Shown here one piece after another: positions 31,142-37,612 of a DNA stretch of 44,441 nucleotides (position 1 is the first letter of the stretch; every line of letters begins with the position of its first letter). The translations under genes were made by a program, and so were the position numbers. The stretch comes from a virus (taxonomy: Duplodnaviria > Heunggongvirae > Uroviricota > Caudoviricetes): IMG/VR virus record IMGVR_UViG_2778261530_000005; one strand, given 5' to 3'. The notes under the pieces were generated by a model. That model searched no databases and was not told where the DNA came from. It saw only the letters and a list, made by a program, of their open reading frames with translations.

Positions 31142-32287
31142 ATGGCACAGGGCTTGCCTGTATCAAACGTTGTTAATGTTGATGTGATCATGTCGCCGCG
31201 TGCAGCATCAGGGCGAAATTTTGGTGCATTACTCATTCTCGGCCCGTCCACAATCATTCCGGTAAGTGAGCGCATTCGCCGTTATTCTGCCGCGGAAGAT
31301 ATTGGAAAAGATTTTGGCGTGGAATCACCAGAATATAAGGCTGCGCAGGTGTTTTTCTCTCAATCACCGAAACCTCAGGAGGTTTTTGTTGGTCGTTGGG
31401 TGAAAACGAAGGGAGACAGCGAACAGGCCACGCCTGAGACGCTGGAGCAGGCTGTGAATGCCATGCTTGATTATACTTCATGGTATGGGCTGGGGATTGC
31501 AGACGATGAAGATATTCCGGATGCAGACTGGCTGAAAGTGGCTGCGGCGATCGAATCCTCTTCTGTAAGCCGTATTCTGGCGATTACGACAAGCGATGAG
31601 AAATGCCTGCAGACTGCATCCAGCGATGATTTGGCATCAAAACTGAAAGCCGCCGGATATTCACGCAGTTTTATTCAGTATTCATCGGGTAATAAATACG
31701 CTGCGTTATCTGCATTTGGCCGGGCATTCACGGTTAATTTCAATGGCAGTAATACCGCGATTACGCTCAAGTTTAAGCAGGAGCCGGGTGTCGGGTATGA
31801 AACACTGACAGTCAGCCAGGCATCGGCACTTGATGCAAAAAACTGCAATGTGTTCGTGTACTACCAGAATGATACAGCTATCCTCCAGCAGGGAGTGATG
31901 GCTAACGGCGATTTCTTTGATGAACGCCACGGCCTGGACTGGTTACAGAATTATGTGCAGACCAACCTCTATAACCTGCTTTATACCAGCACCACGAAAG
32001 TTCCCCAGACTGAAGCCGGTATTACCCGACTGTTATCAAATGTTGAAAAATCACTGGATCAAGCCGTTCAGAATGGACTGATTGCTCCGGGCGTATGGAA
32101 CGGGGGCGACCTTGGTCAGTTGTCATCAGGTGACACACTGCCCAAAGGTTATTACGTATACGCTCAGCCGCTGGATGAACAGGCTCAATCAGAACGTGAA
32201 GCCCGTAAGGCTCCGGTGATTCAGGCTGCAATAAAACTTGCAGGCGCGGTTCATTACGCTGACGTACAGATTAACGTTGTTCGCTAA
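31142..32287 (+). CDS. Tail sheath protein
   Basis: 381 aa directly preceding the tube protein and chaperone/tape-measure genes; resembles sheath proteins of Mu/SfV-type tails. Confidence 0.75.
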
Positions 32288-32297
32288 GGGGAAGTGA

Positions 32298-32738
32298 ATG
32301 TCTACCTATTCTTTTATGGATGTCACTGCGACGCTGACCGGGCCGACCGGTTCGATTGACCTCGGGTACGGTTCTGCAAGTTCTGAAGAGGGGATTGTGG
32401 TTGCGATGGGCGGTCCTAAAAACACCATGACCATCGGTGCTGATGGCGAAGTGATGCACAGTCTCCATGCAGATAAAAGCGGGACGATTACCGTTAACCT
32501 TCTGAAGACATCACCGACAAATAAAAAATTGTCGCTGGCGTATAACGCACAGAGCCAGTCTTCTGCCACATGGGGGAATAACGTTATTGTGATCCGCAAC
32601 AAGGTCAGCGGCGACATCATCACGGCACGTAGTGTTGCGTTCCAGAAACAACCGGATAATGCCAACGCTAAAACCGGTAATACGATGCCGTGGGTGTTTG
32701 ACTGCGGCAAGATTGACCAGGTTCTCGGGGAGTTTTAA
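32298..32738 (+). CDS. Tail tube protein
   Basis: 146-aa ORF between sheath and chaperone genes. Confidence 0.65.
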   Translation: MSTYSFMDVTATLTGPTGSIDLGYGSASSEEGIVVAMGGPKNTMTIGADGEVMHSLHADKSGTITVNLLKTSPTNKKLSLAYNAQSQSSATWGNNVIVIRNKVSGDIITARSVAFQKQPDNANAKTGNTMPWVFDCGKIDQVLGEF

Positions 32739-32741
32739 TAC

Positions 32742-33194
32742 ATGGAATTCGAAATCAAAGGCGTGAAATATCGCGCGGCAAAACTCAGCGTTTTTGACCA
32801 GCTGAAAGTGACCCGCAAACTTCTTCCGGTACTGGCGGGGATGATGTCAGATTTCGGGAGCATTCGCTCCCGTTTGCCTGCTGATGGCAAAATCGACACC
32901 GTGAAATTCGAGCAGTTAAAACCGGTGTTTGAAACCATGCTCCCGCGTATCGCTGAGGAACTGTCTTCCCTGACCGAAGATGACACCGATGCGATTATTC
33001 ATCCCTGTCTTGCGGTGGTATCGCGGCGTCATATGGACGGATGGGTGCCGGTATTTACCCGGGGCGAACTGATGTTTGATGATATTGACCTGCTGGTCAT
33101 GCTGCAGCTGGTGGCGCGGGTGGTCGCCGATTCGCTGGGAAATTTTTTGCCTACACCCCTTACCAGCACGACGCAGAGCCTGCAACAGGGCTGA
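32742..33194 (+). CDS. Tail assembly chaperone with candidate -1 frameshift extension to about 33380
   Basis: 150 aa upstream of the tape measure; T_TTT_TTG heptamer at 33143-33149 with an open -1 frame of 77 codons ending at the tape measure start. Confidence 0.55.
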   Translation: MEFEIKGVKYRAAKLSVFDQLKVTRKLLPVLAGMMSDFGSIRSRLPADGKIDTVKFEQLKPVFETMLPRIAEELSSLTEDDTDAIIHPCLAVVSRRHMDGWVPVFTRGELMFDDIDLLVMLQLVARVVADSLGNFLPTPLTSTTQSLQQG

Positions 33195-33371
33195 CGTTTA
33201 ACAGCCTGCCGGACGGGCTGTCCTACCTTCTCAATCCGGTTGACGCCGGGTTAATTCCTTATACAGCACTTAAAGATGGCTCTGTCGATTTGTACGACAT
33301 TGCTCTCTTGAATGACCATCTGGCGGTAAAAGCGGATAACCAGCGGCGCATTGAGAAATGGAGAGAGGATA

Positions 33372-35378
33372 ATGAACGCTGAAACTATTAAAGATTTCCT
33401 CGTCTCGCTTGGCTTCAGTGTGGATGATGCAGGAGCGAAAAAGTTCGGTTCTGTCCTCGCCGGTACAACTGCAAATGTCATCAAAATGGGGCTGGCTGTT
33501 GAAGGGGCTGCGCTGTCCGTGGTGGCCTTCACGGCTAAGATCGCCTCCGGTCTGGATAATCTTTACTGGGCGTCACAGCGCACCGGCGCGACGGTCCAGG
33601 GAATTCAGTCTATTGGCTATGCGGTTTCGCAGGTTGGCGGCAGTGTGGACGCTGCGCGATCTTCTCTGGAAAGCCTCTCCCGGTTTATTCGTAACAATCC
33701 CGGAGCAGAAGGCTTTCTGAATCGCCTGGGCGTACAGACCCGTGATGCCAGCGGTAACATGCGTGACATGGCTGCTATCTTTACGGGCGTTGGACAGAAA
33801 CTCAGCAGCATGCCGTATTACCGGGCTAACCAGTATGCGCAGATGCTGGGCATTGACGAAAATACCCTGATGGCTATGCGTCGCGGAGTGGGGCAGTTCA
33901 GCGCTCAGTATTCAGAAATGGTGAAAGCGATCGGATTTAATGCCGATCAGGCTGCCTTATCGTCAAACCGGTTTATGACCTCGCTGAAATCGCTCGGTGA
34001 AATGGCCGGGATGGCGCGGGACAAAATCGGATCGAATCTTGCGGACGGACTGGCGGGGCAGATTGATAACCTGCGCAAAAAGATAATTGAAAATTTTCCC
34101 AAAATTGAAGTCACCATCACAAAGGTCATAAAAGGGATCCTCTGGCTGGGTGAGATAGTCGGGCGGGTAGCATTTCGGATAGTCGATGGTGTCGGAGATA
34201 TCATCGAGTGGTGGGGGAAACTGGATGCCGAAACGAAAACCCTGATAGAGGTTATCGGCGGCCTGGTTGTCGCCATGCGGATACTTAACTCTACTTTCTG
34301 GATGTCACCTATAGGGCTGATTACTGGTCTGATCGTGGCTCTCGGTCTCTTGTGGGAAGACTACAAAACATGGAAAGAAGGCGGTAACAGCCTTATCGAC
34401 TGGGAAAAATGGCAACCGGCAATAGATAAAGCGAAGGATGCGATCACCTGGTTCCGCGACAAATTACTCGAGCTGAAAGACAGCGTGGGGGGATGGCAAA
34501 AATCATTGGAAATCCTCGGTACATTCATCGCGGGTGTCTGGATATCCAAGGTTCTGGGGGCTTTCGGAAAAATATCAGGTTTGCCGATCCCACCCTGGCT
34601 TAAATTGTGGGCGCTTTACGCGGGTTATATTGTTAGTGACAGAGAAAATATTGCCGATAGCGCAAAATCTTCACTGAGGTATACGAAGCGAATTATCGGC
34701 GACACGCTGGCTGCTATTGGTATAAAAACAGATATCGGACGCAGGGATGTCAGTGAGGTCCGTGAATGGCCTGCGTGGATGGACTGGTTGCACGGGGGAC
34801 CCGGTAAAGTTATCCGGCAGGGACAGAGTAACGGTGTAGTGCATGGCTCCAATGTCCAGCCCGACATCCCCGGCGGCGGCACTCTTGCTGATCGCAACAA
34901 TAACCCCGGGAACATTCGCCCGGTGAGCGGTAAAGGGTTCCGTTTTTTCGAATCAGCGCTTGAGGGCTGGGAGGCGATGAAAAACCAGCTCATGCGTTAC
35001 TTTACCGGGAAAACAACCGGACGGGCATTACAGACTATTCAGGATATTGTCAGTACCTGGGCCCCGGCAGGTGATAACAACGATCCGAAAAAGTATGCAC
35101 AGGATGTTGCGAAATGGATGGGAGTATCACCGAATGCAATATTGAATCTTACAGATCCCCGGACTATGGGAGCATTGATGCAGTCGATGGCGCGCAAAGA
35201 AGGTTATTCAAACTGGAACAGCCCGCTGGCGTATAAGGTCGCCGCTGGCAGCCTTAACCAGCAGACTGTTATAAATGTTCATGGAGTTAACAACCCTCAG
35301 GAGGCGGCTAATCTGATCGCTGACAAGCAGGGGGCTGTAAATGCCAGGGCGGTACAGCAATTGAAAGGACCTGCGTAA
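33372..35378 (+). CDS. Tail tape measure protein
   Basis: About 668 aa from MNAETIKDF…; largest tail gene after the chaperone; hydrophobic central segments. Confidence 0.75.
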   Translation: MNAETIKDFLVSLGFSVDDAGAKKFGSVLAGTTANVIKMGLAVEGAALSVVAFTAKIASGLDNLYWASQRTGATVQGIQSIGYAVSQVGGSVDAARSSLESLSRFIRNNPGAEGFLNRLGVQTRDASGNMRDMAAIFTGVGQKLSSMPYYRANQYAQMLGIDENTLMAMRRGVGQFSAQYSEMVKAIGFNADQAALSSNRFMTSLKSLGEMAGMARDKIGSNLADGLAGQIDNLRKKIIENFPKIEVTITKVIKGILWLGEIVGRVAFRIVDGVGDIIEWWGKLDAETKTLIEVIGGLVVAMRILNSTFWMSPIGLITGLIVALGLLWEDYKTWKEGGNSLIDWEKWQPAIDKAKDAITWFRDKLLELKDSVGGWQKSLEILGTFIAGVWISKVLGAFGKISGLPIPPWLKLWALYAGYIVSDRENIADSAKSSLRYTKRIIGDTLAAIGIKTDIGRRDVSEVREWPAWMDWLHGGPGKVIRQGQSNGVVHGSNVQPDIPGGGTLADRNNNPGNIRPVSGKGFRFFESALEGWEAMKNQLMRYFTGKTTGRALQTIQDIVSTWAPAGDNNDPKKYAQDVAKWMGVSPNAILNLTDPRTMGALMQSMARKEGYSNWNSPLAYKVAAGSLNQQTVINVHGVNNPQEAANLIADKQGAVNARAVQQLKGPA

Positions 35379-36336: not shown

Positions 36337-37377
36337 ATGTCGAAAAACTGGATGCGTCACTTTGAATTATTGCTTGTTGATGATAAGGGCGACGGGATAA
36401 AAATTTCTGAGCTTAAAGTCACTTTCAATATTCAGAAAATGCCTGCGACCATATTTAATGGATTTGTTGGAAATTTTAAGGTTTATAACCTGTCTCCTAC
36501 CACTCAGAACCGGATTATGCAGAAGGAGTTTTCGCGTATACAGGTTATTGCCGGATACAAGGGGCAACCGGATGCAGCAGGTAATTATCCTGATGAAAAC
36601 GTTGGTATGATATTCAATGGAGATATCCGTTTTACTGTCACTGGTAAAGATAATGCCACAGACAGTTGGATCATGTTGCAGTGTATTGACAGCTGGGAAG
36701 GCCACCTGAACGCAAGTGTGAAAACCACAGTGGCAGCTGGCTGGAAGTACAGCGATCTTTTCAGTCTGGGTATGAAATCATTCGAACCATATGGCATCGA
36801 ATCCGGAGCAGTTCCTGACATGCCTGAAACGGTATTTCCCCGAGGGCGCGTTGTTTATCAAAACACATCAAGGTTGATGAATCATATCGCAGGGCAGTGT
36901 AAAGCTAACTGGTGGTATGAAAATAATCTGGTAAATATTGTTCCTGAAGATAAATATATTGGTGTTGCTACGGTGTTGAATGCTAACACCGGGCTTATCG
37001 GTATGCCACAGCAGACGATGGGAGCTGGCGTAAATGTCAGATGCCTGATTAATCCAAATATTAAGCTCGGTGGGCTTATTCGTCTGGATCAGGCATCTGT
37101 ATACCGTGCCTCTTTGAGTAATGACCAGGTAGCGAAATCGCCAGCACGACTGGATGAGTCTGAAAGCGACGGTAATCTCTACGTTAACGGTCTGCCAGGC
37201 ATGTCACAGCCTGCCAGCATTAATACTGACGGTGATTACATTGTGGGCAGCATTGATTATACTGGCGACACCCGAGGGCAGGCGTGGTATATGGACCTGC
37301 TTTGCCTGGCTAAAGGGAGTAAAAGTTTACTCAATCCTGATACGATAGCGAAAATAAGTGGGGTACCAAATGCTTAA
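36337..37377 (+). CDS. Baseplate/tail protein, possibly hub
   Basis: 346-aa ORF in the baseplate cluster. Confidence 0.5.
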   Translation: MSKNWMRHFELLLVDDKGDGIKISELKVTFNIQKMPATIFNGFVGNFKVYNLSPTTQNRIMQKEFSRIQVIAGYKGQPDAAGNYPDENVGMIFNGDIRFTVTGKDNATDSWIMLQCIDSWEGHLNASVKTTVAAGWKYSDLFSLGMKSFEPYGIESGAVPDMPETVFPRGRVVYQNTSRLMNHIAGQCKANWWYENNLVNIVPEDKYIGVATVLNANTGLIGMPQQTMGAGVNVRCLINPNIKLGGLIRLDQASVYRASLSNDQVAKSPARLDESESDGNLYVNGLPGMSQPASINTDGDYIVGSIDYTGDTRGQAWYMDLLCLAKGSKSLLNPDTIAKISGVPNA

Positions 37378-37612
37378 ATGGATCTTATTACTGGTATATT
37401 TTGTGACTTTGTCTTCTATGGCTGCAGTAACATGCACCACTTCAAATACAGGAACAACTTACTGTGCTGGTACAGACAGTAGTGGTTCTACAGTTAGAAC
37501 AGAATCTTATACAACCAATACAGGCACTACGTATACCACAGGAACGATTAATGGGAATGCAGTACATCGTGAATGCCAGACGACCAATACTGGCACAACG
37601 TACTGTAATTAA
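37370..37612 (+). CDS. Small secreted Thr-rich repeat protein (moron inside baseplate module)
   Basis: 80 aa from MLKWILLLVYFVTLSSMAAV… (signal peptide), then three repeats of T-[ST]-N-T-G-T-T-Y and four Cys; AT-rich; ATG overlaps the preceding stop. Confidence 0.45.
   Translation: MLKWILLLVYFVTLSSMAAVTCTTSNTGTTYCAGTDSSGSTVRTESYTTNTGTTYTTGTINGNAVHRECQTTNTGTTYCN

Follow-up and report, generated by a model that had tools for sequence, protein, structure and literature searches.

A tail assembly chaperone gene with a predicted −1 ribosomal frameshift in a myovirus-tailed E. coli prophage

The tail chaperone locus and its two predicted products

The tail assembly chaperone gene of a myovirus-tailed E. 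coli prophage very probably (we put the probability at about 0.88, on comparative sequence evidence) contains a programmed −1 ribosomal frameshift, by which a short and a long chaperone would be made from one start codon. The prophage was analysed in a stretch of 44,441 nucleotides, hereafter the window, and a search of 5,426 complete E. coli genomes found a close match to the locus in 337.

The genes are ordered sheath, tube, chaperone, −1 open reading frame (ORF) and tape measure, with an overlapping ORF pair between the tube and tape measure genes. The tail sheath gene (31142-32287; DUF3383, phrog_205) is followed by the tail tube gene (32298-32738, + strand; Pfam KPP10_Orf10/DUF3277, E 9e-61), which is the upstream neighbor of the chaperone gene (32742-33194, +). 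The latter ends with TGA at 33192-33194 and encodes a zero-frame product of 150 aa, the equivalent of gpG and of P2 gpE. A preliminary description of this DNA had called it a tail assembly chaperone, and its Pfam Phage_TAC_15 assignment and its position between the tube and tape measure genes agree. The tape measure gene (33372-35378, +; phrog_2276, tail length tape measure protein, E 9e-248) encodes a protein with a lytic transglycosylase part at its C-terminal end, and its ATG (33372-33374) is identical to the start chosen by PGAP (33372).

The −1 extension (33149-33382, +) comprises 77 open codons past the heptamer and a TGA at 33380-33382, 8 nt inside the tape measure gene. The preliminary description had counted the 77 codons correctly and placed the stop two bases too early, at 33378-33380; the overlap it reported with the tape measure gene also exists, involving the first 11 nt of that gene rather than its start codon. 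These 11 nt and the tape measure Shine-Dalgarno (SD) sequence (GGAGAGAGGA) both fall within the extension. Joined as 32742..33149, 33149..33382, chaperone residues 1-136 and the extension form a fusion of 213 aa.

In the mechanism we propose, the majority of ribosomes would read 32742-33194 and produce the 150-aa chaperone. A minority would move back by one base on the U-rich tract GGG AAA UUU UUU G (33137-33149), with either AAU/UUU (A_AAU_UUU) or, a codon further on, UUU/UUG (U_UUU_UUG) in the P and A sites. They would then translate the 77 −1 codons and stop 8 nt into the tape measure gene. Their 213-aa product would consist of the first 136 chaperone residues, a linker of ~35 residues and a DUF6889 domain. 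Lambda gpG/gpGT and P2 gpE/gpE+E' suggest, by analogy, that the shared N-terminal part would coat the tape measure protein and the rare C-terminal domain would recruit tube (and sheath) subunits, so the frequency of slipping would set the short/long ratio. We infer the ribosomal shift itself, its efficiency, its exact codon and this division of labour between the domains. The predicted tryptic peptide across the junction is VVADSLGNF[L/F]AYTPYQHDAEPATGLTFNSLPDGLSYLLNPVDAGLIPYTALK; a slip on U_UUU_UUG would yield the junction SLGNFLAYTPYQHD, and a slip on A_AAU_UUU or G_GGA_AAU, or slippage by RNA polymerase, would yield SLGNFFAYTPYQHD.

The −1 extension as coding sequence

Taken by itself, the window makes a weak case for a frameshift. 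Canonical heptamers are common, with 83 of them in frame in its ORFs that reach 100 aa or more. When 33149-33379 was shuffled by mononucleotide, 2.8% of the shuffles were stop-free, i.e., a 77-codon open frame appears in about 3% of shuffles. These figures speak for a coincidence, in which heptamer and open −1 frame would both be accidental and the 150-aa chaperone the sole product. As the single-sequence pattern is uncompelling, our argument rests on comparative data, and it is because of these (domains, conservation of the −1 frame, breadth of lineages and single-ORF homologues) that the pattern stands far above chance.

The −1 translation matched two protein families. Pfam DUF6889 (PF21829; 33257-33373, +), the proposed equivalent of a T-domain, aligned to fusion residues 173-211 (E 8.9e-20; 70.6 bits vs a gathering cut-off of 23.9), and phrog_4364 aligned to fusion residues 161-213 (E 1.4e-22, or 1.8e-23 with the extension alone). 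Nucleotide diversity over 33195-33371 was 0.106, 0.075 and 0.335 at the first, second and third −1 codon positions, placing the wobble at the third. Homologues lacking a conserved open −1 frame, which the preliminary description had named as evidence against a shift, were not found: among the unique homologues of equal length, the −1 frame was open in 40 of 40, and the 0 and +1 frames were closed in 40 of 40. DUF6889 lay in the −1 frame of the Phage_TAC_15 (TAC_15) gene at 91 of the 96 loci examined. Judged from these sequence patterns, the −1 stretch is coding and under purifying selection in the −1 frame. Together with the conservation across lineages and the single-ORF homologues, the Pfam and PHROG matches and the codon-position periodicity effectively refute, at the level of sequence, the reading of the pattern as an accident, to which we give next to no credence.

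In distant relatives (L012-L015), TAC_15 and DUF6889 are encoded by one ordinary ORF of 191-209 aa that adjoins a short TAC_15 gene. The conceptual fusion aligned end to end with such single-ORF homologues (P0137-P0221), including through the junction (GNFL|AYTP vs ARFLAYEP), and the Phe-Leu or Phe-Phe codons at the homologous junction in L012-L015 contained no T6 run. AlphaFold2 (AF2) prediction for an in-frame T7 variant (P0001) with alignment A3 gave a single confident model (pLDDT 91, pTM 0.82) with pLDDT 91-97 in the DUF6889 domain; for the fusion without an alignment, the prediction was useless (pLDDT 39). A sequence search of the PDB with the family profile returned no match.

DUF6889 could alternatively be a separate small protein with an independent start inside the −1 ORF, as in the RefSeq/PGAP annotation, where a CDS named 'DUF6889 family protein' begins with CTG (33218-33382, +; 2019-2183 of L001). 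DUF6889 has a CDS of its own (50-59 aa) in PGAP and in several GenBank phage records, most DUF6889 matches in a library of 1.84 billion proteins are gene calls of 40-100 aa, and a few relatives (L005/L006, L096) have an ATG at the S-M-P-E-G position. Against such a protein, the window has no ATG, GTG or TTG upstream of the domain, so PGAP was forced to the CTG at 33218, and 73 of 77 variants likewise have none from the heptamer to the conserved S-L-P-D-G motif. An SD-like motif was sought in the four variants that do have a candidate start and was found in none of them. Moreover, reading from the heptamer, the −1 frame remains open and aligned ahead of every proposed start, and this segment includes a proline (fusion P157) that is unvarying in the family and precedes the PGAP CTG. 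In relatives without a frameshift, DUF6889 is always fused to the TAC_15 domain. With only a CTG available, conserved residues upstream of it and no conserved start in the relatives, a gene that initiates by itself was rejected, and we consider a separate small protein very improbable. We judge the CTG-initiated RefSeq entry, from the same comparisons, to be a mis-annotated frameshift extension. Some records name the extension 'NTP pyrophosphohydrolase'.

The slippery tract and its surroundings

The zero-frame codons at 33138-33152 are GGA AAT TTT TTG CCT, with a T6 run at 33143-33148 and a G at 33149. The heptamer T_TTT_TTG thus lies in the correct X_XXY_YYZ phase, with 14 zero-frame codons separating it from the chaperone stop; position (33143-33149, +) and phase are as given in the preliminary description. 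Its sequence is identical to the proven P2 E/E+E' shift site. It also forms the end of a 13-nt slippery tract (GGGAAATTTTTTG; 33137-33149, +) of three overlapping X_XXY_YYZ heptamers, i.e., G_GGA_AAU (33137-33143), A_AAU_UUU (33140-33146) and U_UUU_UUG (33143-33149), which sit in the region open in both frames (33089-33191) and all lead into one −1 frame. The preliminary description had missed the overlap of U_UUU_UUG with the two upstream canonical heptamers.

The tract is strongly conserved. The 13-mer was identical in 75 of 77 unique relatives, which represent about 9 lineages at 90% identity, and the two that deviate (AGGAAATTTTTTG and GGGAAATTTTTTT) retain the T6 run. The synonymous positions of GGA, AAT, TTT and TTG did not vary across 39 unique contexts. 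The run is T6 in the window, as it is in 76 of the 77 unique relatives, with T7 in the remaining one (L093); the more distant L096 also carries T7. At the homologous G-D-F-F/L position, distant relatives (L096, L099) carry U_UUU_UUU or U_UUU_UUA, and another (L098) has DUF6889 in the −1 frame but no canonical heptamer. One public assembly (L011) has a T7 variant in which the fusion is encoded in frame.

A homopolymer of this kind also raises the possibility of transcriptional slippage, in which RNA polymerase would add one U on T6 and the edited mRNA would give …GNFF-AYTP…. The in-frame T7 variant indicates that a product with one additional nucleotide is viable, and T7 occurs in some relatives (L093, L096). 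Productive slippage by bacterial RNA polymerase generally requires homopolymer runs of about 8-9 nt or more, and T6 is too short for this. The conserved feature is, furthermore, the correctly phased heptamer rather than the length of the run, and P2, with the identical TTTTTTG, is cited as shown to frameshift translationally (PMC3091744). We thus regard slippage by RNA polymerase as a most unlikely source of the long product.

Within the translational reading, the choice of shift codon may differ from the one first proposed. In E. coli reporter assays, the tetramer U_UUG was barely above background, and U_UUU_UUG falls outside the efficient heptamers (PMC4066793); because of these data, U_UUU_UUG may not be the main shift site.

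A downstream stimulatory structure, suggested in the preliminary description, found no support: no significant signal emerged from folding, RNAalifold or Rfam. The MFE z-score was −0.47 for 33150-33239 and 0.08 for a 121-nt fold (33095-33215), RNAalifold on 9 relatives gave 5 invariant pairs and no covariation, and the Rfam scan had no match at E ≤ 1. The locus therefore shows no hairpin or pseudoknot of the dnaX or IS3-IS911 type 5-9 nt past the heptamer. A conserved CC ~10 nt downstream, considered as a structural signal, reflects a Pro codon that is conserved in the −1 frame.

Upstream of the tract, the block GTG GCG CGG GTG GTC GCC (33111-33128, +) is conserved at synonymous sites and is a possible, though unproven, stimulatory element. 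It includes a conserved CGGGUGG (33117-33123), at a distance of 13 nt from G_GGA_AAU and 19 nt from U_UUU_UUG; for an SD-like stimulator, we used a distance of 6-17 nt before the heptamer. Pairing of GGGUGG with the anti-SD reached only −7.0 kcal/mol, a value attained by 15% of random windows.

A more elaborate proposal can be built on these observations. The site would be a compound one, with the main shift in E. coli on A_AAU_UUU (of the efficient H_HH.U_UU.Y class) and with 33111-33128 as an upstream stimulator replacing RNA structure, and the TAC_15/DUF6889 family would switch between recoding (in enterobacterial prophages) and tandem gene duplication (L012-L015) to obtain the same short/long pair. 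We offer this combination tentatively and think it rather doubtful.

Comparison with known systems and annotation

All sequence-level predictions of a G/GT-type frameshift, the type named in the preliminary description, were tested and borne out, although the analogue nearest to the window is P2 E/E+E' and not lambda G/GT. The P2 −1 frameshift at TTTTTTG, in the FETUD tail operon, is attributed to Christie et al. 2002 as cited in PMC3091744. As in the window, P2 combines a contractile tail with the order sheath, tube, chaperone, −1 extension and tape measure, has no downstream stimulatory structure, and has an extension without a start of its own. The P2 frameshift reportedly reaches about 10%. 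The two systems have no detectable sequence relationship, the window having a Phage_TAC_15 chaperone and a DUF6889 extension, and their products differ in length (150/213 aa in the window, 91/142 aa in P2). The window heptamer, unlike that of P2, belongs to a 13-nt tract in which two more heptamers overlap, and the P2 shift is experimentally proven, whereas that of the window is predicted.

The role of lambda gpG/gpGT is covered in a review (PMC5009743, citing Levin 1993 and Xu, Hendrix & Duda 2004, 2013, 2014), which gives a gpG:gpGT ratio of about 30:1. Lambda likewise obtains two products from one start by a low-level −1 shift between the major tail and tape measure genes, and the logic is presumably alike, with a shared N-terminal domain that binds the tape measure and a rare C-terminal domain that binds tail tube subunits. 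It differs in being a siphovirus, in shifting on G_GGA_AAG with Lys/Gly tRNAs, and in its protein families.

A true homologue is found in Klebsiella phage Mulock (CPT_Mulock_014/015; MN098327), with about 67% nucleotide identity, the same 13-mer and a −1 extension of 78 codons. Its GenBank record joins the homologous ORFs as a CDS named 'tape measure chaperone frameshift product'. The Mulock frameshift is thereby annotated but goes unmentioned in the genome announcement. A full-text literature search for 'DUF6889' retrieved no papers, and the Pfam entry lists its function as unknown.

The outcome predicted here, a short chaperone plus a long form with an extra C-terminal domain, is also reached without frameshifting, by the TAC-N / TAC-NC pairs of T4-like phages (Vladimirov et al. 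2022, as cited in PMC12846349) and by L012-L015. Such pairs are two tandem, strongly diverged genes, in contrast to the recoding in the window, and those of L012-L015 bear the very same DUF6889 domain.

The arrangement is the ordinary, well-known one of long-tailed phages, and our understanding of tail assembly or of frameshifting is unchanged. Of minor mechanistic interest are the overlap of three heptamers, the lack of any stimulatory structure in the searches above, and the relatives that reach both products via two genes. The main value lies in annotation: the CDSs of the chaperone and its extension should be written as a join with ribosomal_slippage, and DUF6889 would be assigned, from sequence comparison, as the C-terminal ("T-like") domain that the frameshift adds to the Phage_TAC_15 chaperone of myovirus tails of the SEN34/Mulock-like kind.

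Genomic setting and anatomy of the proposed shift site

The window holds a ~42-kb E. coli prophage inserted between yebY and pphA/yebW, to which strain BCE049 is 100% identical over the query, and which combines a Rac-like early region with a contractile-tail module. In the tail module, the sheath gene (DUF3383, phrog_205) is followed by those for the tube (KPP10_Orf10/DUF3277), a 150-aa tail assembly chaperone (TAC; 32742–33194), a tape measure protein with a transglycosylase C-terminus (ATG at 33372–33374; phrog_2276, E 9e-248), a Dit-like baseplate protein, a Pam3_gp18 plug, and an E217_gp41 hub. Matches to Pfam Phage_TAC_15 (TAC_15; E 5.7e-30) and phrog_1688 (E 2e-61) confirmed the chaperone identity assigned in the preliminary description, which had proposed a programmed -1 frameshift in this gene. 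The end of the baseplate hub gene is overlapped by an 84-aa plus-strand ORF (37358–37612) for which RefSeq lists no CDS in BCE049; its N-terminus is hydrophobic and resembles a signal peptide, TNTGTTY(C) motifs recur in it, and it may represent either a moron or a spurious ORF.

The sequence at 33130–33152 is ATT CGC TGG GAA ATT TTT TGC CTA CA, and the zero-frame codons of the chaperone gene at the site are GAT TCG CTG GGA AAT TTT TTG CCT (D S L G N F L P). The slippery heptamer is present as proposed, with T6 at 33143–33148 and T_TTT_TTG at 33143–33149 in the X_XXY_YYZ phase, and 14 codons separate it from the zero-frame TGA (33192–33194), also as described. Two other canonical heptamers (G_GGA_AAT and A_AAT_TTT) precede and overlap it in the 13-mer at 33137–33149, and all three lead into one common -1 frame. 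That frame is open from 33089 and, as claimed, for 77 codons past the heptamer, although its TGA lies at 33380–33382 and the 33378–33380 given earlier was two bases too low. The claimed overlap with the tape measure gene exists but covers the gene's first 11 nt; GGAGAGAGGA precedes the ATG. A single sequence is weak evidence for a frameshift on its own, since window ORFs of 100 aa or more contain 83 in-frame heptamers, and the 231-nt -1 stretch comes out stop-free in 2.8% of its shuffles.

A conserved -1 extension lacking its own start

The conceptual fusion, comprising chaperone residues 1–136 and 77 residues from the -1 frame, is 213 aa long, and its -1 part matches DUF6889 (Pfam PF21829; E 8.9e-20, residues 173–211) and phrog_4364 (E 1.4e-22; 1.8e-23 for the 77-aa extension alone). 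Coding signal was compared among 40 unique homologous sequences of equal length, whose identity to the window in this region was 56–100%. The -1 frame was open in all 40, so homologues with a closed frame, which the preliminary description had regarded as evidence against recoding, were absent from this set; stops occurred in the 0 and +1 frames of every one. Nucleotide diversity at 33195–33371 was 0.106, 0.075, and 0.335 at the first, second, and third -1 codon positions, respectively. Within the 14-codon overlap, variability was highest at the -1 third position, i.e., the zero-frame second position, and thus the C-terminal tail of the 150-aa short product appears to be the less constrained of the two readings.

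A separate gene for the extension, as in the RefSeq 'DUF6889 family protein' CDS (33218–33382), was rejected, as this CDS begins at CTG and the extension has no start of its own. No ATG, GTG, or TTG precedes the conserved part in the window's -1 frame, no candidate start was found before the S-L-P-D-G motif in 73 of 77 variants, and an SD-like sequence was absent from all four variants with one. PGAP calls the extension as a stand-alone CTG-start 'DUF6889 family protein' in RefSeq E. coli genomes, and homologous CDSs occur in phage records; in some records the small ORF is named 'NTP pyrophosphohydrolase' (e.g., Klebsiella phage ST11-VIM1phi8.3).

Searching the 77-aa extension against 1.84 billion representative proteins returned 111 matches, mostly 40–100-aa gene calls. 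Eight were 191–210-aa proteins with DUF6889 at the C-terminus, all encoding TAC_15 and then DUF6889 in one reading frame. Three of these were looked up (P0144, P0137, and P0221) and led to four loci, in each of which the long gene lies immediately 3' of a second, short TAC_15 gene (tandem pairs at L012 1989–3130, L013 577–1718, L014 108–1238, and L015 231–1285). The short and long paralogues are strongly diverged. By this alternative route, these relatives obtain the short/long chaperone pair from two genes without a frameshift. The window's conceptual fusion aligns end to end with the single-ORF proteins, junction included (SLGNFL|AYTP versus SLARFLAYEP and SLARFFTYAP), which indicates that DUF6889 works as a C-terminal domain of a TAC. 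At the junction of the single-ORF relatives, the T6 run is absent and Phe-Leu or Phe-Phe is encoded by TTC CTG, TTT TTC, or TTC TTC, which ties the run to recoding and not to the amino acids encoded.

Conservation of the slippery tract and possible mechanism

Of 96 loci, which were drawn from GenBank phages, IMG/VR, and look-ups of exact proteins, 91 had DUF6889 in the -1 frame of TAC_15. A set of 77 unique sequences, representing about 9 lineages at 90% identity, contained GGGAAATTTTTTG in 75 cases, and the two departures were AGGAAATTTTTTG and GGGAAATTTTTTT. The synonymous positions of GGA, AAT, TTT, and TTG showed zero variation in 39 unique contexts, and third-position diversity 10–20 codons upstream of the tract was 0.1–0.6; the tract is kept beyond protein-level need. 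More distant relatives have GGG GAT TTT TTT CCC (U_UUU_UUU) or GGC GAT TTT TTA (U_UUU_UUA) at the homologous place, with DUF6889 in -1; a canonical heptamer was not found in one short metagenomic contig (L098), only CCT TTT ATC. Because the distant relatives retain only the T-run heptamer, we argue that the T-run is the likely ancestral core, to which the enterobacterial clade added the other heptamers.

A 97%-identical prophage on a Logan contig (L011 1896–1909, SRR23924998) has T7 in place of T6, joining TAC and DUF6889 in frame as a 213-aa protein (P0001); this could be a true mutant, or the homopolymer may have been misread or misassembled. The 13-mer is identical in L009 ('Elizabethkingia phage EKP1', OM284015), with ~71% nucleotide identity to the enterobacterial tail module, and its assignment to a Flavobacteriia host looks doubtful.

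Upstream of the tract, the synonymous sites of 33111–33128 (GTG GCG CGG GTG GTC GCC, in which CGG is a rare Arg codon) hardly vary among relatives, and the block's CGGGTGG core is kept even where flanking codons differ (L009); SD-like (anti-SD) pairing of this block was not above background. Past the heptamer, where the preliminary description had suggested a search for a stimulatory element, no RNA structure was predicted or conserved, and no Rfam family matched at the site. In E. coli reporters, the U_UUG tetramer is only 1.8–3.6x background, and efficient U-type heptamers are of the form H_HH.U_UU.Y (PMC4066793); on that basis A_AAU_UUU (33140–33146) would fall in the efficient class, and U_UUU_UUG is unlisted there. 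Slippage at A_AAU_UUU versus U_UUU_UUG would give products one residue apart, NFF-A versus NFL-A. Frameshifted ribosomes would end 8 nt beyond the ATG of the tape measure gene, right over its Shine-Dalgarno region (33351–33382), and unshifted ribosomes 177 nt upstream of the ATG; the former could conceivably be coupled to the tape measure gene by termination-reinitiation.

Known systems and implications

The -1 coding signal, the conserved tract, the start-less extension, and the single-ORF relatives support the programmed -1 frameshift, and from these sequence comparisons we put the probability that the recoded TAC-DUF6889 fusion is made at about 0.9. The nearest analogue in way of working is P2 gpE/gpE+E', which shifts at the same TTTTTTG with no hairpin (PMC3091744), in line with the lack of a predicted structure at the present site. 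By descent, the nearest relative is Klebsiella phage Mulock, for which GenBank joins both ORFs as "tape measure chaperone frameshift product", a product unmentioned in the Mulock genome paper. A recent study of the Pakpunavirus chaperone locus, unrelated in sequence, reached the same conclusion by the same kind of argument (PMC12846349).

The proposed frameshift is a textbook feature, annotated once before in the TAC_15/DUF6889 family (in Mulock), and the practical yield is a correction of the DUF6889 annotation in 337 of 5,426 complete E. coli genomes and many phage records. In the lambda model (PMC5009743), the domain common to both forms coats the tape measure, whereas tube subunits are recruited by the rare C-domain; we infer that the same division of labour may apply to the TAC-DUF6889 pair.
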